In this document: one piece after another, positions 2,410 through 28,183 of the stretch
How the letters are laid out: every line of letters begins with the position of its first letter
Position numbering within the stretch: position 1 is the stretch's first letter
From: Candidatus Bathyarchaeota archaeon
GTDB lineage: Archaea > Thermoproteota > Bathyarchaeia > Bathyarchaeales > DTEX01
Assembly (NCBI GenBank): GCA_025059045.1
Contig: JANXEA010000002.1
Span: forward strand, 10,798 to 74,797
DNA length: 64,000 nt
Direction of reading: 5' to 3'
The notes under the pieces: generated by a model
The model's input: only the letters and a program-made list of their open reading frames with translations
What the model was told of the DNA's origin: nothing
Databases searched by the model: none
Made by a program: the position numbers and the translations under genes

Positions 2410-4701
2410 GTGGCGAATAGATTGGAAGGGGGCTCAGAAAAAATCGAACACCCAAGAAGTGGGCTTACACCTAAGGTTCTAGTGATAGGCATAATACTAT
2501 CGATCTTTGCAGCGTTTTTCAACCAGTCCGAGTATGTAGACTTCTACGAGACCGTTGGGGCGTTGACCCATCTTGATAGCGCCTTCATGCTTTTCCCGGG
2601 AGCGCTACATACGACGGTACTTGGCGGAATCTTTCTAAGCCTAATCACTATTGGTCTTATCCTGCTTATCGACAGGCGGGGGAGATTCTCTAAGCAAGAG
2701 CTAGCAATGATATTCATAATAGGTGTGCTAATCACCTCCATTAACCTTTCAAAAGATGGGTTCATGTCAGGCGAGGATATCCATGAATATATGGCGCCGA
2801 TATGCTGGTATTTCGAAAGCGAGGCGCGCCAAAAGGAATTTTTAGCTCTCTATGCTGGCACTGTCTGGTGTCCAGGACAATTCTCGAATGCAAGCTATGT
2901 GCGAAGCGTACTTAAGGGAAATTTGCTGCAGGGGACGATGATGCCCATAGATTGGGGAGCATGGATGCCTCTTATCGCATACAGAGTGTTATCGCTTACG
3001 GGAATGGCATACCTTGGTGTGGCTATAGCCCTCCTGGTTAGAAGATCATTCATCGAGATCGAGGTGCTTTCCTTCCCATGGGGTGAGATAAATCTCGTCG
3101 CTTTTGAAGAAACCTTAGCTTTCATTAAGGGAGAAGATGCAGCCGGAAGGAAGATTCGAAGACCTCTCATCCTAAGCTTCCTAATCTTCTTCTTCCTCTT
3201 CTTCTCCATGTATGCGCCAAACAACATTCTCTGGCTAGCAGGCGTTAAAGGAGTATCATTCAAAACATGGATGCCATGGTGGACTTATCCGGAAAAGAAC
3301 CCGACTGTTGGAGCGCTCCAATGGTGGACTTCAGACAACATCTTTGAGGTGGACCCCACATTGCTAGGACTATCTTTCCTTCCATGGGTGGCCCTGCTGA
3401 TTCATCTGTGGCCAGTTAACCATGCAGCCTTCTTCATTATGCCTATTGAGGTTCTAATTGGATGCTTTGTAGGTGACATCTTCTTCGAGTGGATATATCC
3501 GATGATACTCTACTCCATAGGACGCCTTCCTACATGGAAAGCCACGGACGCTGTCTATGGGGTAGCTAGAAGCGTTGCTAGCGCTTGGTATGGTGCAGGA
3601 GTATATCTTGGATTAGGTCTATTCATACCATTCGTTATAATTCCACTTTGGAAAAACAGATCGGTCTTCAGTCCAATATTCAAGGCGGCGGCAGGAAGGA
3701 AAGTGAAGAAGGAAATAGATCCCAACGCGCCCACATCATACACTAGTGTATGGATACTTGTCTTGGCCTCCATAATAATGATACTTGCTGGCTTCACGAT
3801 TGTCGGATGGCAGATTACATGGGGTCTACCCATAATACTCTTGTCCTTCGCAGTCGGGATAGGTCAGCTAAGACTAATAGCAGTTGGAGCCGCCTTCATC
3901 TTTGCAACGTACGGATTTGCAAACTTTGACCCCGGACAGTTCCCTGGATCTATGAATGCCTTCCAACGGCACATTACAGCAGCGATATTCGGGCTAGCGG
4001 ATCCTTACAGGGTCATGGATCCGGCAATGTGCACCTTTAGCGCATTCTGGGGTGGAATGACGGGATATGGCGGAACATTCGGCTTCAGAATATGGTGGCT
4101 GATAATGGGAGCCGCCTCGGTGCTCGCAGCCTTCTATATTGCGAATAGAGTGAAACTTGAGGGCAAAGATGTTCTTAAGGCCGCGCTGATATTTATACCG
4201 GTCTCATTGATACTCTTCGATGTCTGGCACATAGCCTCAATATACCTCAACGATGTTCTTTCAGGGCGCTTCTTCAGCATAAGCCTAATCCAGAAAATGG
4301 TGAGAAGGGCTCTCGTAAGGTCTGTTGGCTCTATAGGAATCACGTTGCCAAGCGGAGAAGCAGTCATGGAGATATACACGGTCAGAACAGCATTCGTGGT
4401 CTTAGGAATAGCAATAACCACAACCCTATATATTCTCAGAGATAAATTCGAATGGTTCAGGATCTCGCCTGAAGGCTTCTGGTTCGGTGTCGTTATGGGA
4501 CCGACATGGACTCTATCATTGGCGATGCTGATAATCAAGTATCTGAGTACCAGAGTTGGAGGTGCGACATTCTATGAAAAGATCGCTAAACCGATAGCCA
4601 TAGGCATAATAATAGCCTTCGGTGCTAACATCTTCATACAGCACTGGTTCCAGCTGGCATACAAGTGGCAGACGGCTTTCGGAATAAATTACGCCCCTTG
4701 A
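2410..4701 (+). CDS. Polytopic membrane protein, module A gene 1 (function unknown; one of four paralogs in this window)
   Basis: A 763-aa ORF that is hydrophobic throughout. It shares the motifs GRFSKQELAMIF and IEIEVLSFPWGE with ORFs 4790, 26100 and 28309. A T7 tract follows the stop. Confidence 0.8.
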   Translation: MANRLEGGSEKIEHPRSGLTPKVLVIGIILSIFAAFFNQSEYVDFYETVGALTHLDSAFMLFPGALHTTVLGGIFLSLITIGLILLIDRRGRFSKQELAMIFIIGVLITSINLSKDGFMSGEDIHEYMAPICWYFESEARQKEFLALYAGTVWCPGQFSNASYVRSVLKGNLLQGTMMPIDWGAWMPLIAYRVLSLTGMAYLGVAIALLVRRSFIEIEVLSFPWGEINLVAFEETLAFIKGEDAAGRKIRRPLILSFLIFFFLFFSMYAPNNILWLAGVKGVSFKTWMPWWTYPEKNPTVGALQWWTSDNIFEVDPTLLGLSFLPWVALLIHLWPVNHAAFFIMPIEVLIGCFVGDIFFEWIYPMILYSIGRLPTWKATDAVYGVARSVASAWYGAGVYLGLGLFIPFVIIPLWKNRSVFSPIFKAAAGRKVKKEIDPNAPTSYTSVWILVLASIIMILAGFTIVGWQITWGLPIILLSFAVGIGQLRLIAVGAAFIFATYGFANFDPGQFPGSMNAFQRHITAAIFGLADPYRVMDPAMCTFSAFWGGMTGYGGTFGFRIWWLIMGAASVLAAFYIANRVKLEGKDVLKAALIFIPVSLILFDVWHIASIYLNDVLSGRFFSISLIQKMVRRALVRSVGSIGITLPSGEAVMEIYTVRTAFVVLGIAITTTLYILRDKFEWFRISPEGFWFGVVMGPTWTLSLAMLIIKYLSTRVGGATFYEKIAKPIAIGIIIAFGANIFIQHWFQLAYKWQTAFGINYAP

Positions 4702-4727
4702 TAAGCCCTTAGACAACTACCCCCATA

Positions 4728-4734
4728 TTTTTTT
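4728..4734 (+). terminator. Oligo-T tract (archaeal-type termination signal) after module A gene 1
   Basis: TTTTTTT lies 27 nt after the stop codon at 4701. Confidence 0.35.
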
Positions 4735-4789
4735 AAACTGCAAAAACCTTAAAAAAAATTTATAATCATAATCCAAAAAGAGTCAAAGG

Positions 4790-6733
4790 ATGCCGCATAT
4801 GTACGAAGAGAACGAGTACAGGTCAGGACTGACAAAGTATTCTGTCCTAGCAATTCTGTATGCAATTGTAGTTTTCATACCTTCAGGTATGTACCTAGAC
4901 CTAATGCTGGGTACTGGAGGAGCGGCGAGTAGTCTATTCACACTCATCCTATTTGTCGAGCTTGGAAGGCTTTCAAAAATCGACATCTCAAAGCAGGAAG
5001 CCGCAATAATACTCATGTTTGCTGGAGGGATAGGGTTTAATGCGATGAACCTAGTTTACAGATCATGGTTTGTTAAGAGCGACTTTGCAAAAGCATTCGG
5101 TTTCGAGAAAGAGATACCGTGGTGGTATGCGCCTACATCGGACAGTCTTGCGTATGAATCGCGAAACATCTTTCATAGGGACATGATTGCGCCTTTACTG
5201 ATTTTAATATCGTTGACCTTAATCGGTCTTTTAGTGAGCTGGGGATGGAGTATGCTTGGAAAGGAAATATTCATTGAGAATGAGAACCTTCCCTTCCCAT
5301 TAGCCAAAATGAACGCTGATCTTATCCTCGTAATGACCAGCGAAAGAAGAGAATATCGAGTCAAAATCCTGAGTCTATGCGCCCTGATTGGTCTCTCATA
5401 TGGGATGATGGTTTATGTATGGCCTTTCTTTGTGCAGGTTACCACCGGGATCCCATATGAGAGAGCCTCCCCGCTTCCTTTACCCTGGATCGACCTAACA
5501 CGATATACAGAGATTATGCTGCCAGGGGCAGTAATCGGTATCTCCACAGACATTAGTTCATATCTGCTTGGTTTCATAGTTCCATTCGGGCATATAGTGC
5601 AGATATTTATAGCATCAGTTGCAATATTTATTATTGGAAATTACTTATCTATCAGACTCTCTCCCCCTTTTGGAATAAGGGACTGGTGGTTTCCAGGTTT
5701 CTCCGCTCAGACACTGGCTCAGCGCTCAATCCTCTACATGTGGGCTAGTCTCCAAATTGGTTTCTCACTTGCAGCTGGTCTACTTCCCCTAATTTCACAG
5801 CCAAAAATGCTTAGGAGGACATTCAGTCAACTCTTCACGCTTCGGGCTAGGAGCCAAGACAGGCGAACAGAGCCTATTCCAGGCGGCCTGCTCCTAGGAG
5901 CACTCATTCCAATAACGATAGGCTTCATAGTCCAGTTATGCTGTCTCCTTTATTTTGTTCCAGAATGGGTTGGGCAGAACCCATGGGTTCTAGCAGCGTT
6001 CCCATCACTTCTATTCCTAAACATGCTCACACGTTCTCGTGCCCAGGGTGAAACTGGACTTTCACCCAGTCTAGGTCAAATAGAAAACTTTATATATTAT
6101 GCGACTAATGCTCCCGTGAAGGTTTGGTTCTCGCCGAATCCCGGCTTCTCATATTCTGAGGGGCTCAGTGGAACACCATTCAGCACATGGAGTGGAAATG
6201 TCCATGCGATAAAGATAGCTGAGTTAACCAAGACGAAATCATCCTCTCTTCTGAAGACAACACTTATATTCGCGCCGGTAGCCATAATCCTCTCATTGCT
6301 CTTCACCCAAGCCTTCCTTAGCATAGCTCCCATACCCTCAGGAAGATATCCTGGAACAGTCATATACTGGCCGATATCGGCTACCTATACCTCCATTTGG
6401 GTTGGGGGAAGAGCAGCAGGCCTCTTCAACATTAGCCATGTCGGATTGGCGGTGTTGATAGTTGTGGTTCTTCACTTAACGTCAGTTTTTCTCAGAATTC
6501 CAATATCGGTGATCGCTCTTGCAGTAGGGGTAGGCACATTGCCTCCGAATGCGATAGCCTACCTAATTAGCGGACTGGCTTCTCTTCTAATACGGCGGAT
6601 ACTCGGCGAAAAGTTCTGGCAAGAGTATAGAAACATCATAGCCGCTGGTGTTACTCTCGGCTTAAGCATAGCGGTCTCCATAGCGGTCTCCCTTATGCTT
6701 GTGGACGCTTCAAAGCTCTCTCTTCCATGGTGA
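4790..6733 (+). CDS. Polytopic membrane protein, module A gene 2 (function unknown; paralog family)
   Basis: A 647-aa hydrophobic ORF with motifs SKIDISKQEAAIILMF and FIENENLPFPLAKMNADLI. These match the equivalent positions of ORF 28309 (SNLSRQEVLILYY, YVERLNYPFPYAVVDASI). It ends 6 nt before the next gene. Confidence 0.8.
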   Translation: MPHMYEENEYRSGLTKYSVLAILYAIVVFIPSGMYLDLMLGTGGAASSLFTLILFVELGRLSKIDISKQEAAIILMFAGGIGFNAMNLVYRSWFVKSDFAKAFGFEKEIPWWYAPTSDSLAYESRNIFHRDMIAPLLILISLTLIGLLVSWGWSMLGKEIFIENENLPFPLAKMNADLILVMTSERREYRVKILSLCALIGLSYGMMVYVWPFFVQVTTGIPYERASPLPLPWIDLTRYTEIMLPGAVIGISTDISSYLLGFIVPFGHIVQIFIASVAIFIIGNYLSIRLSPPFGIRDWWFPGFSAQTLAQRSILYMWASLQIGFSLAAGLLPLISQPKMLRRTFSQLFTLRARSQDRRTEPIPGGLLLGALIPITIGFIVQLCCLLYFVPEWVGQNPWVLAAFPSLLFLNMLTRSRAQGETGLSPSLGQIENFIYYATNAPVKVWFSPNPGFSYSEGLSGTPFSTWSGNVHAIKIAELTKTKSSSLLKTTLIFAPVAIILSLLFTQAFLSIAPIPSGRYPGTVIYWPISATYTSIWVGGRAAGLFNISHVGLAVLIVVVLHLTSVFLRIPISVIALAVGVGTLPPNAIAYLISGLASLLIRRILGEKFWQEYRNIIAAGVTLGLSIAVSIAVSLMLVDASKLSLPW

Positions 6734-6739
6734 AATTGG

Positions 6740-9700
6740 ATGAATATAAGTGGAGGAATAATGTCATCTAAAAGGCAAGTATGCAAATGGATCAAGATTT
6801 TATTAATGGCGAGTATAATGCTCATCAGCTTTTTCAACCTAACCCAGATTTACCGCGCAGATCAAATTTTAACAGTCACCTCAACCCCCTCAGAAATGGA
6901 CTATCTTAAACTCGCAAGTATGGTAGACATGGAACTTGTCAAGCATCATCTTTACATGTTGTCAAAAGGGATCTATGAAATATCTGGTGTGCACAGTCGC
7001 GCCACGGGGACTCTGGGAAACGAGCTTGCCGCAAGATACATTTATGAAGAATTTAATAGACTAATGGAGAATGTTTCCATTCAGAGTTTCAGAGTTCCAG
7101 TACCGAAGAGTTACGGCGCCAATATTACGTTTCCTGACGGCAGCGTCATAAAATTATATCCAGTGCTACCTAACCTAGTTTGCCCCTCAACCACGCCGCC
7201 TGAGGGGATAAGTGGCACACTTCAATACGCCCGTGAAGGGTACCTTAAAGACTTCGACGGAATGAGGATTGAAGGGTCAATAGTTATATTGGATTATGAA
7301 TCTGGAAATCGATGGCTTAATGCCATGAAGCTGGGAGCCAAAGCCGTAATTTTCCTGCCGCCCAAAGATCCATTAAACAGTTTCTCCCCATACGGGCATC
7401 ATCACACCCACCCGAAGTATCTTGAGAATTTCCCAGTCTACTTCCCCCGCTTCTATGTGAAGGAGGAAGACTTGAAGAGTCTTTTCATCAATCTAGGCAA
7501 GAATGTTACAATAAAATCAACTGTTAGATGGGAGAATGCTGAATCTTGGAATATAATTGGCTTCATTCGAGGAGAGAACCCGAATGTCATCTTCGGGATC
7601 TCCTCATATTATGACTCATACTCGTTTGCTCCTGATCTTGCGCCAGGAGCCCAGGACGCATGTGGAATTGCAGCACTACTTGCCCTTGCTAAACACTTCA
7701 ACGAACATCGGCCTAAGGCGACGATAATATTCATCGCATTTGGAGGCCACTATCAGACAGTTGCAGGTGCACTTCAATGGGCAGAGAGTAGGGAGTATGC
7801 GGAAATAAGCCAAAAGATCTGGATGATACTTAACCTAGACCTTTCCACTGGGTCAGATGCCCTTCATGTTACAAATGTGGCTCACCTCTGGACCCACGCT
7901 CAGGCTGGCCACACAGAAGCCTATATCGGGATAGGCAGGCATCTTGAGAATATGCGAAAAGCAATATCGGAAGCATATGTTCGGGCAGGCTTAGAACCGC
8001 CTACAGTTTGGACTACATACATTCAAATGAGGACTGGGGGTCCTGGAGACCCGCCTACCAACTATCATGAACCCCATCCGAATAGGGCGTTCCTGACGGA
8101 ATTAGACGCCTTCGACCCTTGGGGAAGCAGAGCGCCTGACTATTGCAACCCAGCCTTCTTCAATATCATTACGGCGAAGGATATTCGTCCATACATCTTC
8201 ACACCATTCGATACATATGACAAGTTGAATTTCGAAAACCTCGAGAAACAACTGCGATATATATATGCGTTAATTCTAACTTTGTATTCGAATGAGGACG
8301 TGCAGTGGCTTATAGAGAACCCGCTAAGATCATGCGCTCCAAGCGGGCGTGTCCAAAGAAATGGAGCATTTGTAGGGCAAACAGCCTTCTGGGACCCCAA
8401 AACGACATGGTATAAACCAGTTCCTAACCTCCTTGTAGTCGCAAGAATGTACTACAGCGTAAATAAGGCTTCAGGTTGGGACGGATGGGGAGGAACAGGC
8501 CCAACATATTACAGGTTCTTCACATACTCAGACGAGAACGGCACCTTTAGGTTCCCATATACTGTCCGAGTATCAACAAAAGCCTGGGTCGGAACAGATG
8601 ATGAAGTATACTTTGAAGCTTATGCCATAGATCCTGAAACAGGCCAGATAGTTGTGGGTCCAGATCTTGGACGGCGAAGCATGATTCCATATCCCTTCGC
8701 TAATACTGTTTGGGAGGGTAAATATGGAGATTGCTTCCTCGGATACCTCACTGTACAAAACGTTACTAGCACAATAATCGTGTCTGACAATTATGCTATT
8801 GGAGAATTTGTAAGTAGAAATCTCTATGATCGTTTTCCTCACCCATCAATCACGGTGAATACGTTCCTCTCGCATGTCCAACCTGAACACTACGCCGTCC
8901 TTTATGACCCTGCAGTCGGTCTCGCGGCGATTCTTCTCTCAACAAACGAGCCTATAGAGGTGATGATCGGGAGGGGAAGAGTGCCTTATGGTCTCATTGT
9001 TAACGCCAGCCGAGAAAATATGCTTGGGACGGGTATAACTTTTGGATATGGACAAACTATCCTAAAGTACCCATATTTAATTTACTGCGAGAATCTGAGA
9101 TGGGTTATCGAAGAAAGATTTAGGTTGGTGGAGCAGTATAAGCCCGTGGATCCCTACATTTATGGTCGCTTCATAAGGGGTGTACAAAGCCTAGAGAAAG
9201 TGTATATCGCATTAAATAATCTATCATACTCGGAAGCCTACGCCTATATGATAGATGCGTGGAGCGACTTATATTGGGCATATGCCAATCAGAGAGGCGA
9301 AATTGAGAACATCGTTTCCATCGCGCCTTATGTCGCCTTCTTTTTGGTGCCCTTCGCCTATTTGACTGAAAGGCTCATACTAAAATCAAGTGGTAGTAAA
9401 CGCATAGCATCGACAATATTAATACTAGTACTCATCTTCTGTATAATTTATACTGTAAACCCGACGTTCAAACTTTCAGGAAACCCGGTTCTAATGGTCA
9501 TAGCTTTTAGTACAGTTATCCTGTCAATCCCGATTCTTTTCATAATACTTAGTAAGGTTGTAGCATTTTTGAATGAGATAAGAATTAAGGTTTTTGGTCG
9601 CCACGAGATCCAGGTAGGCCGAGTAGAACTTGCAATTGCAGCTATTCAGCTGGGAATAGAGAATATGCGAAAGAGGAAGGGGAGGACCGCGCTTGTTCTA

Positions 9701-11356
9701 GTGTCAATAGCGCTCACCATAAGTGCGCTAGTAGCCATGACATGGTTTATTCAAGACGTGCCAGTGATTCCGCAAAGGTTCGTTCCGCCTGAAACCGGCT
9801 ATCAAACGATCCCATACAATGGTATACTTATCCATTACAATGAATGGGGGGGAGAAAGAGAAGGTCACTGGATAGGTGAGCTAGTGGAAAATTATGTGGA
9901 GATCAAGTACTCAAGCTTAGCAATGATAGCGAAGAGGGCGTGGTATTGGCCATGGTACTATGATGACGAAGCCGGAATAGACATCACACATGAAAATAAC
10001 TCAATCAAAGTATATTGCCTCTACGGGTTATCTCCAGAGGATCATCATTTCACAAGTTTCCTACCAAACTTTAACGGAAGATGGTTCCTATCCACAGATA
10101 AATATGCGTGCATACTAATGAGTTCCCACGCCCAATCACTTAAGGCAACAATAAATTCTATAATAGAAATTCAGGGAATGCCCTACAAGGTTATAGGAAT
10201 AATAAGAGATGAAGAGATCTCCTCTGCAGGAGAACTTGACGGGTACAGTGTTCTGCCAGTAGATATTCGAGCATCAAAAACTGTGGACGCGTGGGTAACA
10301 TATTATGAGCCATCTGAGGTTATTTTCATCCCGTACTGGACCGTCATTAACATTTGGGGAGCGCGTACTGGATGTATAAGCCTAAAAATCTCGAACGCAA
10401 GTCTCGCGTGGACCGTCGTGCAAGAGCTCTATGAGAGATTCGGAAGCCTATCCTTCTGGGTTTGTATGGATGGAAAAGTCTACACGCCGACACGCATTTC
10501 GCAAACGCAAGTATTCGGGCTTGAATACATGTTTCCCGCCATCGGAATAAGCATGCTTTCAATATTGAATATGATGCTCGCATCAGTCATGGAACGGAAA
10601 AAAGAAATTTCCGTATATTCAGTGCTTGGTGCCTCGCCATTAAACACCGCGCTTATGTTCCTAACCGAGCATGCAGTCCATGCGGTGATAGGCGGCGTTT
10701 GTGGTTTCATCGGAGGAAACGTGCTCTTATTGCTAATTGCGAGACAGCTAGGAATAAACTACACGTACTCAATAATCCAATTCAATGTCTCTGTGCTAGG
10801 AGCGATGCTGATGGTGATACTTGTGAGCGTATACCCGGCGACGATCATTGCAAAACTCGTCACACCGAGTTTAGAGCGAGCTTGGAAAATGCCAACAAAA
10901 CCAGTCGGCGATAACTGGGATATCCCGATGCCATTCTTCACCTCAGGGGAGGAGGTTGGAGGGGTCCTGGAATTCATGAGAGAATTTTTCTCTGGACATT
11001 ATGATTCGAACGCGCCGGTTTTCTGGGTTGAAAGCATAAAATACGTTGAAGGAGAGGCGGATGGGGTCCCATATATGGGGTATAGCATGCAAGTACACCT
11101 CTTCCCATATGAGACAGGTATCATTCAAGAAGCGAATGTAATCGCAAAGACCGAGGATGCAAGATGGAGGATCTTCCTCCTGACCAAGAGGTTAACGGGC
11201 ATGCGTGATAGGTGGATTCAGCAGAATAGAGGGTTCGCCGACGCTGTTAGAAAACAGTTGTTACTTTGGAGATCACTTAAGCCGGAAGAGAAAATGGAAT
11301 ATATCAAAAAATCAGGGGGTGTGACGTTTAACAAAGGCCATTCTGTATCAGATTAA
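6740..11356 (+). CDS. Giant chimeric envelope protein, module A gene 3: N-terminal anchor, PA/M28-peptidase-like ectodomain, 3 TM, MacB/FtsX-type permease module, conserved C-terminal cytoplasmic domain
   Basis: 1538 aa.
- PA-like: GSIVILDYESGNRWLNAMKLGAKAVIF.
- M28-like: WNIIGFIRGENPNVIFGISSYYDSYSFAPDLAPGAQDACGIAALLALAKHF.
- FtsX N-terminal TM: IENMRKRKGRTALVLVSIALTISALVAM (~nt 9657).
- FtsX core: LNMMLASVMERKKEISVYSVLGASPLNTALMFLTEHAVHAVIGGVCGFIGG (~nt 10560-10730).
- C-terminal domain from VTPSLERAWKMPTKPVGDNW (nt 10859 to the end). Confidence 0.85.
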   Translation: MNISGGIMSSKRQVCKWIKILLMASIMLISFFNLTQIYRADQILTVTSTPSEMDYLKLASMVDMELVKHHLYMLSKGIYEISGVHSRATGTLGNELAARYIYEEFNRLMENVSIQSFRVPVPKSYGANITFPDGSVIKLYPVLPNLVCPSTTPPEGISGTLQYAREGYLKDFDGMRIEGSIVILDYESGNRWLNAMKLGAKAVIFLPPKDPLNSFSPYGHHHTHPKYLENFPVYFPRFYVKEEDLKSLFINLGKNVTIKSTVRWENAESWNIIGFIRGENPNVIFGISSYYDSYSFAPDLAPGAQDACGIAALLALAKHFNEHRPKATIIFIAFGGHYQTVAGALQWAESREYAEISQKIWMILNLDLSTGSDALHVTNVAHLWTHAQAGHTEAYIGIGRHLENMRKAISEAYVRAGLEPPTVWTTYIQMRTGGPGDPPTNYHEPHPNRAFLTELDAFDPWGSRAPDYCNPAFFNIITAKDIRPYIFTPFDTYDKLNFENLEKQLRYIYALILTLYSNEDVQWLIENPLRSCAPSGRVQRNGAFVGQTAFWDPKTTWYKPVPNLLVVARMYYSVNKASGWDGWGGTGPTYYRFFTYSDENGTFRFPYTVRVSTKAWVGTDDEVYFEAYAIDPETGQIVVGPDLGRRSMIPYPFANTVWEGKYGDCFLGYLTVQNVTSTIIVSDNYAIGEFVSRNLYDRFPHPSITVNTFLSHVQPEHYAVLYDPAVGLAAILLSTNEPIEVMIGRGRVPYGLIVNASRENMLGTGITFGYGQTILKYPYLIYCENLRWVIEERFRLVEQYKPVDPYIYGRFIRGVQSLEKVYIALNNLSYSEAYAYMIDAWSDLYWAYANQRGEIENIVSIAPYVAFFLVPFAYLTERLILKSSGSKRIASTILILVLIFCIIYTVNPTFKLSGNPVLMVIAFSTVILSIPILFIILSKVVAFLNEIRIKVFGRHEIQVGRVELAIAAIQLGIENMRKRKGRTALVLVSIALTISALVAMTWFIQDVPVIPQRFVPPETGYQTIPYNGILIHYNEWGGEREGHWIGELVENYVEIKYSSLAMIAKRAWYWPWYYDDEAGIDITHENNSIKVYCLYGLSPEDHHFTSFLPNFNGRWFLSTDKYACILMSSHAQSLKATINSIIEIQGMPYKVIGIIRDEEISSAGELDGYSVLPVDIRASKTVDAWVTYYEPSEVIFIPYWTVINIWGARTGCISLKISNASLAWTVVQELYERFGSLSFWVCMDGKVYTPTRISQTQVFGLEYMFPAIGISMLSILNMMLASVMERKKEISVYSVLGASPLNTALMFLTEHAVHAVIGGVCGFIGGNVLLLLIARQLGINYTYSIIQFNVSVLGAMLMVILVSVYPATIIAKLVTPSLERAWKMPTKPVGDNWDIPMPFFTSGEEVGGVLEFMREFFSGHYDSNAPVFWVESIKYVEGEADGVPYMGYSMQVHLFPYETGIIQEANVIAKTEDARWRIFLLTKRLTGMRDRWIQQNRGFADAVRKQLLLWRSLKPEEKMEYIKKSGGVTFNKGHSVSD

Positions 11357-11377: not shown

Positions 11378-13693
11378 TTATGTCTTCCCGAACCAGATCC
11401 TCCAGCTTTTTCTCTCCTCTCCTTTCTGAAACATAATTGTAGCCTTCAAGATCGGTCCCATAATATTAGTGCTCTCTACTCCGCTAAAGCGAACTGGACT
11501 GAACCCTTCGGGTACATAAATGAAGATATTGTGGCTTGTGTCCTCCGGACTAACTGAAATCCCGTCTAGGACCAGCCTGCCCCCCTCCCACCTTAAGTCT
11601 TCAAGTTCTATCCCTCCCTGCGTAATATGCCTATCCGTCGAGATTACTGTAGGAGACTCGCTGAAATCATGTATGGAAAGAATCTTGCAGTCATTAGGCT
11701 GAATCTCGAAAGCAATCTCGCCATGTTGCACTCCAATGAAGTTTCTGTTCCAAAAGTCGAAGACGAGAACTTTTCTGTCGGCTAAACCTATCTTTCCTAG
11801 GTCAAGACGAATGGTCTTTTTCTGAGTGCAGCTCCAGTTAAATAATCCAACGACATGCCATTCGCCAAATGGCTTCTTTACGATCAGATCATAGATTTGT
11901 GGTAAATCATTCTCAAAGAGGTCGACGGGTCTCGCTCGCCCCGGATAAACTGGAAGAATTTTCTTGTATAACTCCACTCTTTCATTGGTTGCGAACTTCT
12001 GCAAATATCCGCCTGCAAACATGTTTAGGCACATGATTCCAAGTAGCGAAATCCATGATCTCGTCCTCTCAAAGGAGTATGGCTTTGGGCGTGGATAGTT
12101 TGCGGGACAGAAAGGTGTCTCCGAAACATCGAAGAATTCCGGATGATTCCAGAAGCACCTTCCATGGAGATGATACATTGCCTTAAGACCTGAAAGGACA
12201 CGGTCGGAAAGATGAGGTCTCCAGTCACGTGAGGTTCTAAATGCATCTGCAAATCCTATGACTGGGCCAAATGGAACACCGCATGCCTCTATGAAGACAT
12301 TTTTTCCAACAGCTTCACGCACTTGGCGGTATCGATCCCTAAATATCTCCATGGCGGTTCGTTCCCATGATAGATTATGTGTAAAGTCGTAATGGAAATC
12401 CAGGATCACATAGTCAATGTCCCAGTCCGCAATCTTTCCATAAATCTCCTTAACTTTTTCTTTCTCGTTGTGTTCTCCTGCCTTAACGTAAAGGAATGCG
12501 CGTGTACTTAGGCAGAGTTTATATCCTCTTCGGTGAACTAGATCCGCGAACGCTTTGATTCCGCTTGGAAAGTATTTCTCAACTCTATACCCTCTGCTGT
12601 TCTCAACCCAAATTGGGAATGAATTCATCTCATACGGATTGAATAGGTTTGGTGAACCGTGAGAAGAAAAGTCCTGCCAGAAATATTTGAGGCCATACTT
12701 TCCCAGCCCTGTATGGTCTAGATAATCCATCCACTCGATGAAGAATGATTCTCGGCCCAGGAGCGTATAAGCATTGTTTTCTTTATCGAAGGAGTATGGC
12801 ATGAATACTCCGGCAACTGGCGTCGGATGAATATTTATATAATTATATTTCATCAACATTTCAGCGTATTGGTCCATGACGCTGAAGATGTCGTCGCCCC
12901 ACATGAGCAAAGTAGCCGACATTCTGAAGGATCTTTCAGGTCTTATCCTTAGCGGTCTCCTCTCTAATGCTGGTCCATTATATTCTTCCCATGACCCGGA
13001 TCCCCATAATGGATCCAAGTAGCAGCCGCCGCTTATAATTAGGTTTAATCCCTGAATTGGTTTTCCAGAAGCCTCTTTTATGAGAACAGCGACTTCGACA
13101 TTAGCAGTTTCTAGGACTCCTGCTACCAAACCGTTTCCCCCCTCCTTGCTTTTTGCCATATGTAGCGTCCACCAACATCTTGCCCAATTTTTCCCGACAA
13201 CTCTGAGTCTCACATTTGAGAACTCAGGCGGCTCGCCTCCGGTTTTCCAGTATGGCATCCCAAAAAAGATCCTTCCAACATACTCTCTGAGACTTCCTTC
13301 TTCTTCCTCAGTTAATGCGAGTGCGTAAACTTCTCTCACATATAGGTCGTTATCCTTATCATTGAAGATTTCAGGCTGGAAAACAATGCAGCGCCCAATA
13401 GAATATACAACCCATCTAAGTTTCGGGAGATTGGCGCTTTCAGCAGTAACCTCTAACCCCTGGGCCTCACCTACTCCTGTCTTCAACGTCTTCCATGCTA
13501 CGGATCGCTTATATGAACTGTCTGTAATCTTTATTAGGTTTCCATCTCCATCGATGAACCCCATAAAACCATTCTTGAAGAGTGTCTTGTTTCGAATGGT
13601 GCAGGTCAGTTTTCCAGTTTCAACATTGAATTCAAGTTTCACATCACTTCTAGTGGACATGGAGCTCACCACTATCAATAGTTCATTCGACAA
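11378..13693 (-). CDS. Putative cytoplasmic glycoside hydrolase (clan GH-D / GH36-like alpha-galactosidase fold)
   Basis: 771 aa with no signal peptide. Blocks DWDIDYVILDFHYD and FIEACGVPFGPVIGFADAFRTSRDW resemble the K-x-D nucleophile and R-x-S-x-D acid/base regions of GH36/GH27 enzymes. Matched by eye only. Confidence 0.45.
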   Translation of the reverse strand: MSNELLIVVSSMSTRSDVKLEFNVETGKLTCTIRNKTLFKNGFMGFIDGDGNLIKITDSSYKRSVAWKTLKTGVGEAQGLEVTAESANLPKLRWVVYSIGRCIVFQPEIFNDKDNDLYVREVYALALTEEEEGSLREYVGRIFFGMPYWKTGGEPPEFSNVRLRVVGKNWARCWWTLHMAKSKEGGNGLVAGVLETANVEVAVLIKEASGKPIQGLNLIISGGCYLDPLWGSGSWEEYNGPALERRPLRIRPERSFRMSATLLMWGDDIFSVMDQYAEMLMKYNYINIHPTPVAGVFMPYSFDKENNAYTLLGRESFFIEWMDYLDHTGLGKYGLKYFWQDFSSHGSPNLFNPYEMNSFPIWVENSRGYRVEKYFPSGIKAFADLVHRRGYKLCLSTRAFLYVKAGEHNEKEKVKEIYGKIADWDIDYVILDFHYDFTHNLSWERTAMEIFRDRYRQVREAVGKNVFIEACGVPFGPVIGFADAFRTSRDWRPHLSDRVLSGLKAMYHLHGRCFWNHPEFFDVSETPFCPANYPRPKPYSFERTRSWISLLGIMCLNMFAGGYLQKFATNERVELYKKILPVYPGRARPVDLFENDLPQIYDLIVKKPFGEWHVVGLFNWSCTQKKTIRLDLGKIGLADRKVLVFDFWNRNFIGVQHGEIAFEIQPNDCKILSIHDFSESPTVISTDRHITQGGIELEDLRWEGGRLVLDGISVSPEDTSHNIFIYVPEGFSPVRFSGVESTNIMGPILKATIMFQKGEERKSWRIWFGKT

Positions 13694-16662: not shown

Positions 16663-19600
16663 ATGCATGGGTCCCGGAAGCTCTATGGATGGAAAGAGGC
16701 CGCTACATACATCCTTGCAGTCATACTTTTGGTGAACGCTCAAATTATTTCATCCGCATGTGAGCAGACCCCACGATCGATAGGCCGCATCTACATAAAA
16801 GTTACAGACGCAAACACAGGGGAACCTATCTCAAACGCAACTTTAATAATACTTGACATTACCACAGGGCTTGAGGAGTCAAAGATAAGGTCAACAGGTC
16901 AAAGCGGAGAGTACGTTTATGAGGAAGCGGTCCCTGAAGGGAAATATTGGATATACGCCTATAAGGGGAACTTGACTAGCGGTTATATGGAATATGCGCC
17001 TGCCGGACCATTTTTAATACATTTCTCAATCTTTGACACCGTGAAGAATCTGACGGTCCGGCTTGTTCCATGCGGAACCATCAGGCTTAAAGGTCCAATA
17101 TGGATGGCTGGCATATCTGAGCTACTAGAGAATTTTGCGGTGACGATTATTGACCCAGCCTGTGGAAAGCCTCCTATGTTAAATGGAGACTATATCAGCC
17201 AGTACAATTCTACAACAAGATTTTATCTTGCGGAGAAAGACTTGCTAAATAAGAGTCTCGTCTTCGTTCCTGCAGACGTTAACCTAGATCTGTTGGTGGA
17301 GGCCACATTCTATAGAAGAGAGGTGGGATTTAGATCCTTCTCGTTCAGGATTGAGAATGTCTCAGTCCGCAAGTCAGAGGAAGCCGCCTATGAACTCTCA
17401 TATTACAGTTTACGTGAGAGCATTAAAGATGTGAATAGTGTTGTCCAATCGGTCATGGAGGAGTTATCTTTTCTCCAGAGTATCGGTTTCTACTTTGTGC
17501 AAGAACGGTCAAATCTAGTGGAGCAGATCAGCACGATAAATGATGCGAGGAGAGAATTGGATAGGCGGGACTATTATGAATGTTGGAAGGCCCTTAGCAA
17601 AGCTTACAGTGAAAGTCTAAGTGTTAGAGAAACCCTGCGTTATTATGTTGGGGTGAGTACTCAGAGTGCGGTTTACCTTCCTACATTCCTAGCCGTTTAT
17701 AGCGTAATACTTGCTTTCTTCCTCTTTGAGGATGACCGGAAAAAAGTTGCTGCCAGCCTCATATTTTATATAGTATTTCTCGTGGCCCTATTCCAAATTT
17801 ATCCTGGTACAAGAACCATAATTAACCCAGAGACTGGAAACATTCGTTTATTTTTGTCAGCCTCTATTCTATCCATAGTCTGTGTAATGGTGCTAGTATT
17901 TTTCCTGCAGCGCCGACCGAGGCTTGGAATTGAAGGTTTAACGACGTTCAGGGATGTACTGGCCACGTTCTTCTCAATGGGGAAACGCCAGATAAGAGTA
18001 AGAAGATCTAGAGGGATCCTCACATTATCATCTGTGATCCTTCTGATCCTAGCATTCACCTCACTAACTTCTATGGGATATATTTATGGGCTAACATACG
18101 AGAAGATACCATACACATCGAACGTTGAGGGGATATTGATAAGGTCGACAGGAAATGAAACATTCATTTATGGACAGAATGTTTATAGGCTTTTTATTCC
18201 ATTCGGATCCAGCCTTGTGTACGCTCTTTCTCAAGATCCCGCAGTCGAGCATGTCGCTCCAAAGATAGAATCATATCCCAGCACAGAACCTATTGGAAGG
18301 CTCTTCTCAAATAGATCATCATTATCGATTTACGGTTTGATCGGCATAGTGCCAAGTGATGAGGCGCAATTTACAAGACTGAACAATGCGATCGTGAATG
18401 GCGAATACCTAAAAGACGGAGACCTTGAAGGATTACTCATAAGCAGCGAAGCGGCTTCAGAATTAGGAGTAAACAGTGGTGATAAGGTTATATTCTCGAT
18501 TGGAGGAATTGTCTCAAACTTTACAGTCCGAGGGATTTTCGGCAGCACATCCTACCAGCAGTTAAGGGATATAGATGGGCAGCCGTTTGGACCTAAGAAG
18601 GCTGCATTTTCCAACGGCACCATCTCATACTCATTATGTGAGCCGAAAGAAGTCATAATATTAAACTTTGAAGCGGCGCTGGAACTTCAGGCAAAGATAA
18701 ACGTTCAGAATAAAAGGGCTCCTGAAGAACCAGGCCCCCTCAATCAGCTCTCCAGAATATCAATAAAGCCTAAGCCAGCTGCGGACATAAAAGGTATGGT
18801 CGAGACCATTGTGAAAAGCTTCGGCAAAGACGCTTATGTCTCTAAAGATGGTGCAGTATACCATTATTACATTGGGTTTGCTTATGAGGCAAAGGGAGCT
18901 CTTGAAATCCTTGTTCCACTGGTGATGGCCCTCATAAACGTCGGCGCCGTCATGCTCAACGCAGTTTACGAGAGAAGCAAGGAGATGAAGATTCTGACGA
19001 CAATGGGATCAAATCCCATGCAGCTCGCTTCATTATTCATTGCGGAGGCAATGACGCTTGGAATGGTTGGTGGTGGGCTCGGATACATTTTCGGCCTAGG
19101 ATTCTACCGTATAATGCTCTTGACTGGAACTGGAATCGAAGTTAGAGAAAAAGTGGAATGGTATTGGAGCGCCATATGTCTATGTCTGGCAGTCTTGGCT
19201 TGTGTTCTCTCTACACTAAGACCAGCTCTACTCGCGATAAAGATGTACACACCATCAATGGTTCGGAAGGCGAAGATCTCTGAAGAGGAGAAGGAGACGA
19301 GAATGGAGGAGATTTTCAAAGTATATCAGGAGAGAAGCATGTCCATGCCAGTAAAAGTGAAGGAAGCGGAGATACTCATATTCACGACTTTCATAAAGTC
19401 AAGAATGGAGGAGATGAGATCAGGAATCTACGAGAGGATTGAAGACGTGGTGGATGAACCTGAAGTACAAACGCCCACTGGTAGGGTCGTACGCAAAGTA
19501 AAGTTCAGATACAATTGCCCACAGGAAAACCTAAAGATAAATAATGAATTAGTATGCAGCAAAGACAAAGGAGAAGACAAGTATAGGGTCCATCTAGTAC

Positions 19601-19713
19601 TTAATACTGACCGAATAGAGATATCGGAAAAGTGGATCTACAGAATCACTGATCTAATCCGCGACATTCTAATGGAATGGGTTCAAAACAAGGACAAAAT
19701 ATTAGGCAGATAA
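16663..19713 (+). CDS. CarboxypepD_reg-like ectodomain fused to a MacB/FtsX-type permease and the same class of C-terminal cytoplasmic domain
   Basis: 1016 aa.
- N-terminal anchor, then IYIKVTDANTGEPISNATLIILDITTG (carboxypeptidase-regulatory-like beta-sandwich).
- FtsX N-terminal TM: KRQIRVRRSRGILTLSSVILLILAFTSL.
- FtsX core: LNAVYERSKEMKILTTMGSNPMQLASLFIAEAMTLGMVGGGLGYIFG.
- Tail YTPSMVRKAK...MPVKVKEAE resembles VTPSLER.WK...IPLKVEHFE of the giant proteins. Confidence 0.8.
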   Translation: MHGSRKLYGWKEAATYILAVILLVNAQIISSACEQTPRSIGRIYIKVTDANTGEPISNATLIILDITTGLEESKIRSTGQSGEYVYEEAVPEGKYWIYAYKGNLTSGYMEYAPAGPFLIHFSIFDTVKNLTVRLVPCGTIRLKGPIWMAGISELLENFAVTIIDPACGKPPMLNGDYISQYNSTTRFYLAEKDLLNKSLVFVPADVNLDLLVEATFYRREVGFRSFSFRIENVSVRKSEEAAYELSYYSLRESIKDVNSVVQSVMEELSFLQSIGFYFVQERSNLVEQISTINDARRELDRRDYYECWKALSKAYSESLSVRETLRYYVGVSTQSAVYLPTFLAVYSVILAFFLFEDDRKKVAASLIFYIVFLVALFQIYPGTRTIINPETGNIRLFLSASILSIVCVMVLVFFLQRRPRLGIEGLTTFRDVLATFFSMGKRQIRVRRSRGILTLSSVILLILAFTSLTSMGYIYGLTYEKIPYTSNVEGILIRSTGNETFIYGQNVYRLFIPFGSSLVYALSQDPAVEHVAPKIESYPSTEPIGRLFSNRSSLSIYGLIGIVPSDEAQFTRLNNAIVNGEYLKDGDLEGLLISSEAASELGVNSGDKVIFSIGGIVSNFTVRGIFGSTSYQQLRDIDGQPFGPKKAAFSNGTISYSLCEPKEVIILNFEAALELQAKINVQNKRAPEEPGPLNQLSRISIKPKPAADIKGMVETIVKSFGKDAYVSKDGAVYHYYIGFAYEAKGALEILVPLVMALINVGAVMLNAVYERSKEMKILTTMGSNPMQLASLFIAEAMTLGMVGGGLGYIFGLGFYRIMLLTGTGIEVREKVEWYWSAICLCLAVLACVLSTLRPALLAIKMYTPSMVRKAKISEEEKETRMEEIFKVYQERSMSMPVKVKEAEILIFTTFIKSRMEEMRSGIYERIEDVVDEPEVQTPTGRVVRKVKFRYNCPQENLKINNELVCSKDKGEDKYRVHLVLNTDRIEISEKWIYRITDLIRDILMEWVQNKDKILGR

Positions 19714-19859: not shown

Positions 19860-22800
19860 ATGAGATACCATGCCTTAATTCTAGCATTATTCATCTTATT
19901 AGCATCATCAATTTCGCATGTAGGAGCTACAGCTGTAAAAGAGAGGGTAATGGGTCAAAGTACGGAGAGAGCTACTCTAGATTGGAGTTACCGGGGATAT
20001 TCCGTTGCAAGCTTACTGGCTGAGCGGGAAGGTTTCGCCAAGGATGTCACTGGCGGGTTAAACGGTAGAGTATACCGTGTGACTTCGCTCTCCCCAGCGA
20101 GTGGTCCTGGAACGTTAAGAGAGGCAGTTTCATTGCCTGAGCCATTATGGATTGTGTTCGATGTGAATGGAACCATAGACCTTGGAAACGAGGAACCTTT
20201 GTACATTAGATCAAATAAGACGATTGATGGAAGAGGCGCAGAAATCGTGATTGCAAGGAAGGGGGTTAGAATAGATTTTCAACAGAACATCATAATAACT
20301 AACATACGCTTCGAGAATGTCGGCGGCGATATTATAGAGATCAGAGGAGAATCCACACTGATCTGGATCCATCACTGCGACTTCATGAATGGGAACGATG
20401 GAGCAATAGACATAGTGAAGACCGCTGGACCAAGTGTAGATGTAACGGTCTCATGGTGTAGATTCTGGTGTCACAAGAAAACTATGCTCATAGGTGGAGA
20501 TGCATGGGAACAAGAGGTGAAGAATGTTCGCTTAACACTTCACCATAACTACTTCTTCATCACCGATCAGCGCAACCCAAGGATCAGATGGGGAAAAGTT
20601 GACGCGTATAACAATTATCTTTATGGCTGGCGCGATTATGGAATGGGCGCAAGCATGTACGGAGAGCTACTTGTTGAGGCAAATGTCTTCGAGGCATTAG
20701 AAAACAAGGAAGCGGTGGTGGCTCCTGTGGGCTCAGGAGGCGAGCTGGACTATCCTGGATATGTGAGGCTGAAGGATAATCTATTCCTTAATGGGGCGAT
20801 AGCTAAAGTTGGCCCGGGATACTCCGGACTTGTCTTTAGACGCGAGGACTATTACACCGCCAAGATAGAACCTGCAACAGAAGGATTAAAACTTAAGATA
20901 ATGGCGCAGGCGGGAACAAATATACCATTCCAGCCGAGAATAATGGTTAACCTCAAATCTGTGGATGATCCATACCCATCAAAACATTACCTAAACAGGA
21001 CAGATATCTATGTCGGAAACACCACGGCAAGGTACTACTGCATCATCGAGCCCTATAGAACCCCCTCAGATAAGATTGTCAGATGTGATTGGGACTTCGG
21101 CGACGGAACAAAACTAACGGTAACAAATGTAGTCCTCTTCCATGATCCATCCGTCACCTACACTTACAAGCAACCAGGAACATACACAATAAAAGTTACA
21201 CTAACGACTGCGGATGGAAGAACAATAACACTAAGTGAAGAGGATGTAATATTGCCTGCAGAGACGGGTGGTGCTGGTGGTACAGGTGGAACTGGTGGGG
21301 CAGGTGGAACTGGTGGTACGGGAGGAACTGGTGGTACAGGTGGAACAGGCGGGGTAGGTGGAATAACCGCGCCCAGCGATGCTCCATGGCCAATGGGACA
21401 GCGTGATCTTTCCCGCTCAGGTTATACGAGCGATCTAGGCCCGGCGACTAATGAGTTATTATGGGTGTTCGATACGGGCACGTATGGCGAGCCTATTAGA
21501 AGCGGCGTCTCAATTGCATATGGAATAGTGTACTTCGGCTCCGACAACGATTGCGTATACGCCGTAAATGCGACTACTGGACAGATGATATGGAGGTTTA
21601 ACGTTACAGAGTTCACAGGCACCGGAAAAGCGGACGTGAGAAGCACACCAGCAATCTCCGATGGTAGAGTATACTTTGGCAGCAGAAACGGCGTCTTCTT
21701 CTGCCTAGACGCCTACACAGGCGCCGTCAAATGGTACTATATTCCAGTCGATGAGGACGGAAAGAATGTCTCTATCTTCCGCAGCTCTCCAGCGGTCGTA
21801 GAGGGCAGAGTTCTCTTCGGAACTAGGGAAAAATCCGGAAAGCTTTACTGCCTAAACGCGACGAATGGTCAAGTGATCTGGAGGTTCGCCGCGGAGAATG
21901 AGATAGACTCAAGCCCAACAGTAGTAAAGGATAGGGTGTACTTTGGCTCCGACGACGACTACGTCTACTGTGTAAACCTGTATACTGGCGAATTAATTTG
22001 GAAGACGAATGTAGGCAGCAATGTGATCAGGGCGCCAGTATACTACAATGGGCTATTATTCGCCGCGTCTCAGGGATTAGAAAGAATATTCGCCCTTAAC
22101 GCAACCACAGGCGAAAACATTAGAAACTACACGATCATGGGGTATCCGAAAGGCGGCGTCGCGGTTGGAAGCGGCAAGCTGGTTATTACAGGGGTAACAA
22201 GCGGAACCGTCTACTGCTTCGACATTGAGACGGGTCAGCGGCTTTGGAGTTACGGAACGGTTGGACTTGAAGCCTACGCAGCCATACCTGTAATCGCACG
22301 GGACATAGTCTACTTAATCGCTCCAGACGCTGCAATTCATGCGGTAGACCTGAACACCGGCCAAATGATATGGAAATATGTTACAGATCCTGCCCAGTAT
22401 TGGAGATGTGATGAGGCTTATGGTGCTATTGCGTATGGCTGCCTGTTCATCGGCGCCGGGGACGGCAAGCTATACTGCTTTGGAAGACCGCCAAACCTTC
22501 CGATGAAATTGACTGCAAAAGTAATATGGGCGAATGGCTCAGCGGTCATAGGTGCAAAAGCCACGATATCAAACGGGACGAACACGTTTACCCAGAACAT
22601 AAGCGCATCAGGGGAAGCAACATTCAGTATCTTCAGGGGCAACTACACGGTGAAAGTAGAATATGGATCCATCCCACTCTATGTGGGCACAATCGATCTT
22701 CAGCGTGACACTACAATAACAGTAACGCAATATCCAGAATTATTACAGTATGCAATCCAACTTCAAAGCCAAATAGCTAGTCTCCAAAATCAGGTCAATA

Positions 22801-22949
22801 ATCTTCAGAGCCAGGTCAATCAATTACAATCTGACAAGTCAAGTCTCCAATCACAAGCATCCAATAGCCTCTACATGGGTCTAGGAGGCGGTGCGGGAGC
22901 CGGCCTAATAATCGGCATAATCATCGCCTACATCTTGAAGAAAAGATGA
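19860..22949 (+). CDS. Secreted multidomain protein: PL1 pectate lyase, PKD-like domain, Gly/Thr linker, PQQ-like beta-propeller, coiled-coil stalk, C-terminal TM anchor
   Basis: 1029 aa with a signal peptide.
- PL1 motifs: SNKTIDGRG, LIWIHHCDFMNGNDGAIDI, RNPRIRWG.
- PKD-like: CDWDFGDGTKLT...YTYKQPGTYTIKVTLT.
- Repeated A-x-D/N-x-x-TG-x-x-x-W blades (VYAVNATTGQMIWRF, LYCLNATNGQVIWRF, VYCFDIETGQRLWSY and others).
- Coiled coil: QLQSQIASLQNQVNNLQSQVNQLQSDKSSLQSQ.
- Tail: LYMGLGGGAGAGLIIGIIIAYILKKR. Confidence 0.85.
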   Translation: MRYHALILALFILLASSISHVGATAVKERVMGQSTERATLDWSYRGYSVASLLAEREGFAKDVTGGLNGRVYRVTSLSPASGPGTLREAVSLPEPLWIVFDVNGTIDLGNEEPLYIRSNKTIDGRGAEIVIARKGVRIDFQQNIIITNIRFENVGGDIIEIRGESTLIWIHHCDFMNGNDGAIDIVKTAGPSVDVTVSWCRFWCHKKTMLIGGDAWEQEVKNVRLTLHHNYFFITDQRNPRIRWGKVDAYNNYLYGWRDYGMGASMYGELLVEANVFEALENKEAVVAPVGSGGELDYPGYVRLKDNLFLNGAIAKVGPGYSGLVFRREDYYTAKIEPATEGLKLKIMAQAGTNIPFQPRIMVNLKSVDDPYPSKHYLNRTDIYVGNTTARYYCIIEPYRTPSDKIVRCDWDFGDGTKLTVTNVVLFHDPSVTYTYKQPGTYTIKVTLTTADGRTITLSEEDVILPAETGGAGGTGGTGGAGGTGGTGGTGGTGGTGGVGGITAPSDAPWPMGQRDLSRSGYTSDLGPATNELLWVFDTGTYGEPIRSGVSIAYGIVYFGSDNDCVYAVNATTGQMIWRFNVTEFTGTGKADVRSTPAISDGRVYFGSRNGVFFCLDAYTGAVKWYYIPVDEDGKNVSIFRSSPAVVEGRVLFGTREKSGKLYCLNATNGQVIWRFAAENEIDSSPTVVKDRVYFGSDDDYVYCVNLYTGELIWKTNVGSNVIRAPVYYNGLLFAASQGLERIFALNATTGENIRNYTIMGYPKGGVAVGSGKLVITGVTSGTVYCFDIETGQRLWSYGTVGLEAYAAIPVIARDIVYLIAPDAAIHAVDLNTGQMIWKYVTDPAQYWRCDEAYGAIAYGCLFIGAGDGKLYCFGRPPNLPMKLTAKVIWANGSAVIGAKATISNGTNTFTQNISASGEATFSIFRGNYTVKVEYGSIPLYVGTIDLQRDTTITVTQYPELLQYAIQLQSQIASLQNQVNNLQSQVNQLQSDKSSLQSQASNSLYMGLGGGAGAGLIIGIIIAYILKKR
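21267..21362 (+). repeat. In-frame tandem 9-bp (GGT GGN ACN) repeat encoding a (GGT/GGA)n linker
   Basis: 96 bp reading ggtggtgct ggtggtaca ggtggaact and so on. It encodes GGAGGTGGTGGAGGTGGTGGTGGTGGTGGVGG between the PKD-like domain and the propeller. Confidence 0.9.
22404..22480 (+). repeat. 77-bp exact DNA repeat, copy 1 (inside the propeller of ORF 19860)
   Basis: agatgtgatgaggcttatggtgctattgcgtatggctgcctgttcatcggcgccggggacggcaagctatactgctt is base-for-base identical to 24223-24299. It encodes RCDEAYGAIAYGCLFIGAGDGKLYCF. Confidence 0.9.
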
Positions 22950-28163: not shown

Positions 28164-28183
28164 TCAATCGCTTCCACCCATTA

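Follow-up and report, generated by a model that had tools for sequence, protein, structure and literature searches.

Two gene trios in the window

The window analysed here is a stretch of 64,000 nucleotides from a Candidatus Bathyarchaeota archaeon (GenBank assembly GCA_025059045.1, contig JANXEA010000002.1, positions 10,798 to 74,797). It contains two co-directional, tightly packed gene trios, named module A and module B, each consisting of two genes for large polytopic membrane proteins (A1 and A2, B1 and B2) and one gene for a giant partner (MA, MB). The three kinds of gene are referred to as D (DUF6785-type), O (OPT-type, for oligopeptide transporter) and M (a gene for a surface protein of about 1,500 amino acids (aa) with M28, MacB_PCD and FtsX domains). 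The genes are as follows, with the domains of the giant partners taken from Pfam.

2410-4701, +: A1, open reading frame (ORF) of 763 aa, D-type (DUF6785/DUF6784 family) OPT-superfamily transporter
4790-6733, +: A2, ORF of 647 aa, O-type divergent OPT (PF03169) transporter
6740-11356, +: MA, giant partner of module A, 1538 aa, with an M28-like ectodomain, a MacB periplasmic-core domain and an FtsX permease domain
26100-28163, +: B1, ORF of 687 aa, D-type transporter
28309-30210, +: B2, ORF of 633 aa, O-type transporter
30192-34784, +: MB, giant partner of module B, 1530 aa, with M28-like, PA, MacB_PCD and FtsX domains

The intergenic distances are 88 bp between A1 and A2, 6 bp between A2 and the start of MA, 145 bp between B1 and B2, and -19 bp between B2 and MB, the start of MB overlapping the stop of B2. 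An earlier reading of the window, made from the sequence alone (the sequence-only reading), had placed the four membrane protein genes at these positions, with the paralogs of the second copy at 26100-30210. All four ORFs exist there, and each peptide it quoted occurs once per protein. In the NCBI annotation A1 is a ‘DUF6784 domain-containing protein’, B1 is likewise named after the DUFs, and B2 is a ‘hypothetical protein’.

Homology of the four membrane proteins

Pairwise BLASTP returned a single clear pair, A2 and B2, with 27% identity over the full length (E 6e-39). The matches of A1 with B1 (E 0.003) and of A1 with A2 (E 4e-4 over 48 residues) were marginal and no similarity was detectable between B1 and B2. 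Since these comparisons backed the A2-B2 pair alone, family profiles were built. The D family contained A1, B1 and 64 aligned relatives (66 sequences), the relatives coming from an exhaustive HMMER search with A1 that found 90 among 1.84 billion representatives. The O family contained A2, B2 and 17 relatives (19 sequences).

Comparison of the two profiles with hhalign gave a probability of 99.96% and an E-value of 5e-39 over 589 columns spanning both proteins, with the two motifs described below in register (fS.QE on lskQE and E.LpFP on E.LPFP). A reversed-profile control reached a probability of 1.2% over 16 columns only, and the match is therefore not due to membrane-protein composition. The hidden Markov model (HMM) of the D family matched O proteins at E-values of 5e-15 to 4e-29, while that of the O family matched 26 of the 66 D members. 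About 35 conserved columns coincide over the whole length of the two families, at a D-O identity of about 18%. These profile comparisons place A1, A2, B1 and B2 in one superfamily. They bear out the proposals of the sequence-only reading that the four proteins form one family and that each module holds a pair of distant paralogs.

When the families were compared by halves, the N-terminal half of D aligned to that of O (E 2.4e-27) and the C-terminal half of D to that of O (E 3.9e-19), with no match between an N-terminal and a C-terminal half. An internal repeat, N-terminal against C-terminal half, was undetectable by sequence in either family.

Family assignment and predicted fold

Protein A2 scored 34.4 bits against the Pfam OPT profile PF03169 (cutoff 25.8), its residues 136-629 aligning to profile positions 105-616. 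B1 matched DUF6785 (PF20581, E 4.6e-20, 72.1 bits, cutoff 25) and DUF6784 (PF20580, E 3.7e-6, 27.5 bits, cutoff 26.4). Searched alone, A1 and B2 had no Pfam match, and no NCBIfam model matched any of the four; P0002, a homolog 66% identical to A1, carries both PF20580 and PF20581. Among the 66 members of the D family, DUF6785 was found in 57, DUF6784 in 53 and OPT (PF03169, E <= 0.01) in four. At the same threshold OPT was found in eight of the 19 O-family members.

AlphaFold2 models of A1 and A2 were built without templates and used in Foldseek searches of the PDB. Both had a predicted local distance difference test (pLDDT) score of 82, with predicted template modelling (pTM) scores of 0.90 for A1 and 0.85 for A2. 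The A2 model matched only HvYS1, the Yellow Stripe 1 transporter of barley (7wsr/7wst, E 1.4e-9, template modelling (TM) score 0.63-0.70), which was also the only real match of the A1 model (7wst/7wsr, E 6.3e-11, TM 0.52 on the query and 0.64 on the target). All further matches of the two models had TM scores of about 0.1 and in no case above 0.15. A1 and A2 each span the whole HvYS1 protomer, which argues that each is a complete transporter and not a half unit. B1 and B2, by their sequence relationship to A1 and A2, would share the YS1-type fold.

Judged by profiles and predicted models, A1/B1 and A2/B2 fall into two branches, deeply diverged from each other, of the OPT/Yellow-Stripe superfamily (TC 2.A.67). 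A1 and B1 belong to the branch that Pfam files as DUF6785 plus DUF6784, and A2 and B2 to a fringe branch of PF03169. The faint OPT likeness noticed in the sequence-only reading is real and stronger than was thought, given the score of A2 above the Pfam OPT gathering threshold and the fold matches to HvYS1 only. As a match to a characterised family this goes half way: the family is OPT, and its prokaryotic branches were biochemically uncharacterised as of 2011 (PMC3061005).

Shared sequence motifs

Three motifs were located in the four proteins, all on the forward strand:

2686-2700, +: A1 motif 1, F-S-K-Q-E, aa 93-97, equivalent to F110-T-R-Q-E114 of HvYS1
3055-3078, +: A1 motif 2, E-I-E-V-L-S-F-P, aa 216-223, with E218 and P223 97% conserved in the D family
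4985-4999, +: A2 motif 1, I-S-K-Q-E, aa 66-70
5276-5299, +: A2 motif 2, E-N-E-N-L-P-F-P, aa 163-170
26307-26321, +: B1 degenerate motif 1, V-S-K-E-F, aa 70-74
26661-26684, +: B1 motif 2, D-T-E-R-I-Q-F-P, aa 188-195
28486-28500, +: B2 motif 1, L-S-R-Q-E, aa 60-64
28795-28818, +: B2 motif 2, E-R-L-N-Y-P-F-P, aa 163-170
3868-3891 (A1), 6038-6058 (A2), 27378-27395 (B1) and 29521-29541 (B2), +: third motif, R-x-x-[AG]-E-x-G

Motif 1 and, judged by its position, motif 2 are hallmarks of the OPT/YSL superfamily. Motif 1, which the sequence-only reading had attributed to all four proteins, is canonical and aligned in A1, A2 and B2. In B1 it is degenerate (S-K-E-F, as in the 65%-identical ortholog of B1) and out of register in a four-sequence MAFFT alignment. 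In the O family its Q and E are each present in 18 of 19 members, and in the D family in 36 and 51 of 66 respectively. Of the second motif, L/I-x-F-P is present in all four proteins, F-P is invariant in the same alignment (F222/P223 of A1), and conservation across the two families is nearly complete (E 64/66, L 51/66, F 51/66 and P 64/66 in D; E 17/19, L 18/19 and P-F-P 19/19 in O). The residues following F-P are W-G, L-A, M-A and Y-A in the four proteins, the S-G of the HvYS1 block not being conserved.

The HvYS1 sequence from the PDB has P-F-T-R-Q-E-N at 109-115 (FTRQEN at 110-115) and L-V-Y-P-S-G at 195-200. Aligned to the D and O HMMs, HvYS1 fragments placed motif 1 and the third motif as expected, though at non-significant scores, and motif 2 not. 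The equivalence of motif 2 with the HvYS1 block rests on its position and on the Pfam OPT match of A2 spanning the region, not on a formal alignment. In the A2 model, motif 1 starts a short helix after the first helix pair and motif 2 forms the break between a long helix (130-164) and a short one (170-183). By analogy with HvYS1, the two motifs would lie within the core's N-terminal half and at the exit of the core toward the arm helix.

The third motif, absent from the sequence-only reading, emerged from the comparison of D and O columns and reads R-A-Q-G-E-T-G in A2 (aa 417-423). It lies near G-T-G-L-T-D446 of HvYS1, the segment with a proposed proton site, although this placement is weak and approximate. 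Its Glu is kept in A2 and B2 and absent from A1 (Val) and B1 (Asn), the latter also lacking the Arg. Across nine triads of D, O and M genes (defined below) the Glu occurs in D only in two, in O only in three, in both in three and in neither in one. This uneven distribution may point to an asymmetry between the D and O partners.

The last residues of the O proteins, S-[IL]-W-x-L-P-[YFW], are strictly conserved and lack order in the A2 monomer model. By analogy, this tail may be an interface strand like S1 of HvYS1.

Conservation of the three-gene unit

Genes D, O and M were found adjacent in eight related loci (L001, L004, L005, L007, L008, L012, L013 and L015) of the small set surveyed. Together with modules A and B this makes ten distinct triads, the near-identical copies L002, L003, L006 and L014 being left out of the count. 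A search with a narrower alignment returned only three Bathyarchaeota loci, two of them too short for neighbours. The gene order varies among the triads and is D-O-M, D-M-O, O-D-M or D-x-M-O.

Divergence of the three genes was compared in nine of the ten triads, without L015. Matrices of pairwise identity for D, O and M are correlated, with r values of 0.91-0.94, or of 0.82-0.86 once the closest pair is removed (Mantel p <= 0.002). D, O and M have thus diverged together, as a unit conserved across the loci listed above. Between modules A and B the identity is about 16% for D, 25% for O and 25% for M, and by sequence the two modules are ancient paralogs. L004 (GCA_033581255.1, JAVQTO010000005.1) encodes an O-type protein that shares the locus-tag prefix RMJ07_ with B2. 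Because of this common prefix, one metagenome-assembled genome appears to hold three paralogous triads. A literature search found no paper on the triad.

The giant partner protein

Compared with solved M28 enzymes, the catalytic/ligand Glu-Glu of the M28 domain is changed to His-Tyr in MA and His-Trp in MB, and the first His ligand is Tyr in MA. Nine M orthologs were inspected, MA, MB and those of L001, L004, L005, L007, L008, L012 and L013. The Glu-Glu is lost in every one (G-H-[HWYD] or G-W-G) and the first His is replaced by Tyr in six. The M28 domain is probably a binding module or a domain of altered chemistry, and the M proteins resemble pseudo-peptidases joined to MacB_PCD and FtsX domains.

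M has M28 and PA domains, and its PDB sequence matches include Nicalin and glutamate carboxypeptidase II. Nicalin and the transferrin receptor serve as comparators with a catalytically inactive M28 fold. M also shares its MacB_PCD and FtsX domains with the MacB/FtsX type VII ABC permeases. In contrast to both groups, M fuses all domains in one archaeal protein of about 1,500 aa, and unlike the permeases it is linked to OPT-fold transporters and has no adjacent gene for a partner ATPase. In the window a single ABC ATPase is encoded (51155-52102, -), with an ABC-2 permease as its partner.

A second FtsX-domain protein, of about 1,000 aa and with a CarboxypepD_reg domain, is repeatedly encoded near triads, at 16663-19713 (+) in the window, at 12506-15529 in L004 and at 11440-14379 in L008.

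Genomic neighbourhood

The genes around the modules are archaeal and include DUF373, DUF7121 and a YGR210-type GTPase. Between 11378 and 22949 the window has glycan-active neighbours, namely a GH51 arabinofuranosidase, a BNR sialidase-like protein and a pectate lyase. Near the triad, L005 has GH38, GH130, GHL10 and a TrmB regulator; L008 has GH172 and an N-acetylglucosamine (GlcNAc) 2-epimerase; L012 has two heparinase II/III proteins, a pectate lyase and GH88; and L015 has a tannase, a fucosidase, GH43 and GH172. The triad of L007 adjoins peptidases (M24, M20/M28).

Further genes lie beside the modules:

11378-13693, -: ORF of 771 aa, convergent with module A, with no Pfam match at E <= 0.001
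19860-22949, + and 23065-24684, +: two PQQ-like beta-propeller proteins, between modules A and B
24737-25957, +: DsbD_TM-like (Pfam) membrane protein of 406 aa, directly upstream of B1

Both PQQ-like proteins, which have a coiled coil and a hydrophobic C-terminal tail, probably sit at the cell surface; one of them is a fusion with a pectate lyase and a PKD domain. The DsbD_TM-like protein carries a CxxC motif (C-E-G-C). The same gene lies upstream of the orthologous module in L001-L003 (8651-9877), which are other Bathyarchaeia contigs, and B-type modules may include it as a fourth member.

Comparison with known transporters

Plant YSL proteins and HvYS1, the only real fold match, have [FLI]-[ST]-[RK]-Q-E and L-x-[FY]-P at positions corresponding to those in the window proteins, and HvYS1 resembles A1 and A2 in protein length and number of helices. 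The identity in the structural alignment is only 13-14%, the S-G-T-A-T-A that follows Y-P in YSL proteins is absent, and neither the proton-site Asp residues nor the Cys250-Cys671 disulfide of HvYS1 could be mapped onto the window proteins. Furthermore, HvYS1 is a homodimer carrying Fe(III)-phytosiderophore, whereas each module encodes two divergent paralogs.

The prokaryotic OPT clusters 4 and 5 of Gomolplitinant & Saier 2011 (PMC3061005) comprise archaeal and bacterial proteins of about 520-690 aa, biochemically uncharacterised at that time. Their function was guessed from neighbouring peptidases or, for subcluster 4C, from a xylanase, and xylan-oligosaccharide uptake was proposed for this bacterial subcluster from its genome context. 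Subcluster 4F is made up of two paralogous proteins of 553 and 552 aa, both from a single methanogenic archaeon; their gi numbers are 2 apart, which suggests neighbouring genes. The window proteins are far more divergent than these clusters: only A2 reaches the Pfam OPT threshold and the D branch is filed as DUF. That survey does not describe a fixed association with a giant M28-like/FtsX protein. The fungal and plant peptide transporters (PT clade, yeast Opt1/Hgt1, AtOPTs) belong to the same superfamily and carry tetra- and pentapeptides, glutathione and folate. The signatures of this clade are NPG and KIPPR (Koh et al. 2002, cited in PMC3061005). KIPPR or [KR]xPPR was found in none of the four window proteins, and a single NPG, at aa 450 of A2, is probably incidental.

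No function is attached to the Pfam entries DUF6785 and DUF6784, which here correspond to the N-terminal and the C-terminal part of a transporter with the OPT fold, and a literature search found no paper mentioning either.

Proposed function and alternative explanations

HvYS1 is a proton-coupled, elevator-type homodimer whose core contains helical hairpins and a discontinuous helix and is displaced relative to the scaffold domain. Each protomer contains its own internal inverted repeats, and dimerisation occurs via the scaffold and a C-terminal strand. By analogy, each D or O protein would be a complete YS1-fold protomer with a mobile core and a scaffold domain, for which cation (proton)-coupled import of the elevator type is expected. 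D and O would join through their scaffold domains as a heterodimer, the counterpart of the HvYS1 homodimer. Such a pairing is suggested by the retention of one D and one O through the shuffling of gene order, and by the O tail that is conserved yet disordered in the monomer model. M would capture or present a small oligomer at the cell surface for import by D-O. We infer that this substrate probably bears carboxylates, with peptides as the default and acidic glycan fragments as a serious alternative. Candidate cargo includes peptides, peptide-like compounds and possibly acidic oligosaccharides or glycopeptides. The OPT substrates characterised so far comprise peptides, metal chelates, glutathione and folate. 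Taken as a whole, the reading of diverged OPT branches as an elevator-type importer, a D-O heterodimer working together with M, is the one we favour and consider reasonably probable.

Several results weigh against it. A1, B1 and B2 do not match the Pfam OPT profile on their own. PDB chain searches by sequence or profile (A2, O profile, D profile) did not find HvYS1, and HvYS1 fragments scored about 0 bits, a non-significant value, against the D and O HMMs. Because the sequence and profile searches miss HvYS1, the link to characterised OPT transporters rests on the Pfam match, the motifs and the fold predicted for A1 and A2. By raw count, module A of the window and four of the eight related loci, or five of ten triads in all, have glycan-degrading enzymes rather than peptidases around them. 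No MacB/FtsE-type ABC ATPase gene lies beside any of the three FtsX-domain proteins in the 64-kb window. The consistent loss of the M28 Glu-Glu counts against the favoured reading in the simple form of a peptidase feeding an importer; a scheme in which an M28 aminopeptidase releases peptides for the OPT pair was rejected on this ground. Finally, the adjacency and co-divergence of D and O would also fit simple co-regulation.

One alternative explanation is that D and O are independent homodimeric transporters with different substrates, neighbours through co-regulation with M. Each protein is a complete protomer, HvYS1 itself is a homodimer, and partners so dissimilar in sequence could differ in specificity. 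Yet one D and one O were held together through four gene orders and through three paralogous triads in one genome, their divergence is tightly correlated, and in five of nine triads the third-motif Glu is present in only one partner, a hint of a division of labour. We regard independent homodimers as rather unlikely, though worth keeping in mind.

The glycan-active genes around the triads of the window, L005, L008, L012 and L015 raise a second alternative, an importer resembling a polysaccharide utilization locus (PUL), in which M binds glycan fragments at the surface and the OPT pair imports acidic oligosaccharides or glycopeptides. The missing catalytic dyad of M28 in all nine orthologs would suit such a role, as would the earlier proposal of xylan-oligosaccharide uptake for subcluster 4C (PMC3061005). 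The known cargo of OPT members, however, consists of peptides, amino-acid-derived chelates and folate, with no demonstrated case of a sugar, and some triads adjoin peptidases, as in L007, or unrelated genes. A glycan importer of this kind appears unlikely. A more elaborate version, which we offer as speculation and hold to be distinctly doubtful, would make the triad a capture-and-import machine of Bathyarchaeia. In it the D-O heterodimer would have a physical coupling to a mechanotransmission protein of the MacB/FtsX type, the M28/PA part of which would have changed from peptidase to receptor, for PUL-like uptake of acidic oligosaccharides or glycopeptides.

One of the two partners could also be a degenerate, non-transporting subunit (a scaffold, regulator or sensor), here the D-type A1 and B1. 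These two lack the third-motif Glu that A2 and B2 keep, B1 lacks the Arg and has a degenerate motif 1, and the motifs are generally better kept in O than in D. But the Glu pattern is reversed or absent in other triads (D only in two, neither in one), the match of the third motif to the proton-site region of HvYS1 is only approximate, and motif 2 is intact in all four proteins, so that a degenerate partner seems quite improbable.

Very unlikely is a role of D and O as non-transporters, in which, as its membrane partners, they would anchor the giant FtsX-type protein or assemble it, remodelling of the cell envelope being one example. Bacterial FtsX-type proteins regulate extracellular hydrolases and no ATPase gene adjoins M, but the transporter hallmarks, including the core-domain motifs, are conserved in both families and the full elevator fold is kept.

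The proposal of the sequence-only reading that the two proteins of a module are half-units building one pseudo-symmetric transporter can practically be dismissed, for although adjacent distant paralogs are typical of some heteromeric transporters, D and O are collinear by halves, align to each other over their full length and each cover the whole HvYS1 protomer with both inverted repeats.

Implications

The kind of transporter is itself known, and membership of OPT is unsurprising for polytopic proteins with OPT motifs. New with respect to the annotation and the literature searched are the identification of DUF6785/DUF6784 as an OPT-fold transporter, its pairing with a second divergent OPT, and, in Bathyarchaeia, the locking of this pair to a giant pseudo-peptidase/FtsX protein. 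DUF6785/DUF6784 and several ‘hypothetical’ archaeal proteins hereby gain a fold and a probable mechanism, that of the OPT/YS1 elevator. If the D-O heterodimer is true, it would be the first heteromeric OPT, and if the substrate derives from glycans, the OPT fold would be extended to a class of substrates never demonstrated for it, broadening its known chemistry. The Bathyarchaeia, abundant in sediments and little cultivated, have ways of taking up organic matter that are largely inferred; for this lineage the triad adds a conserved three-gene unit.

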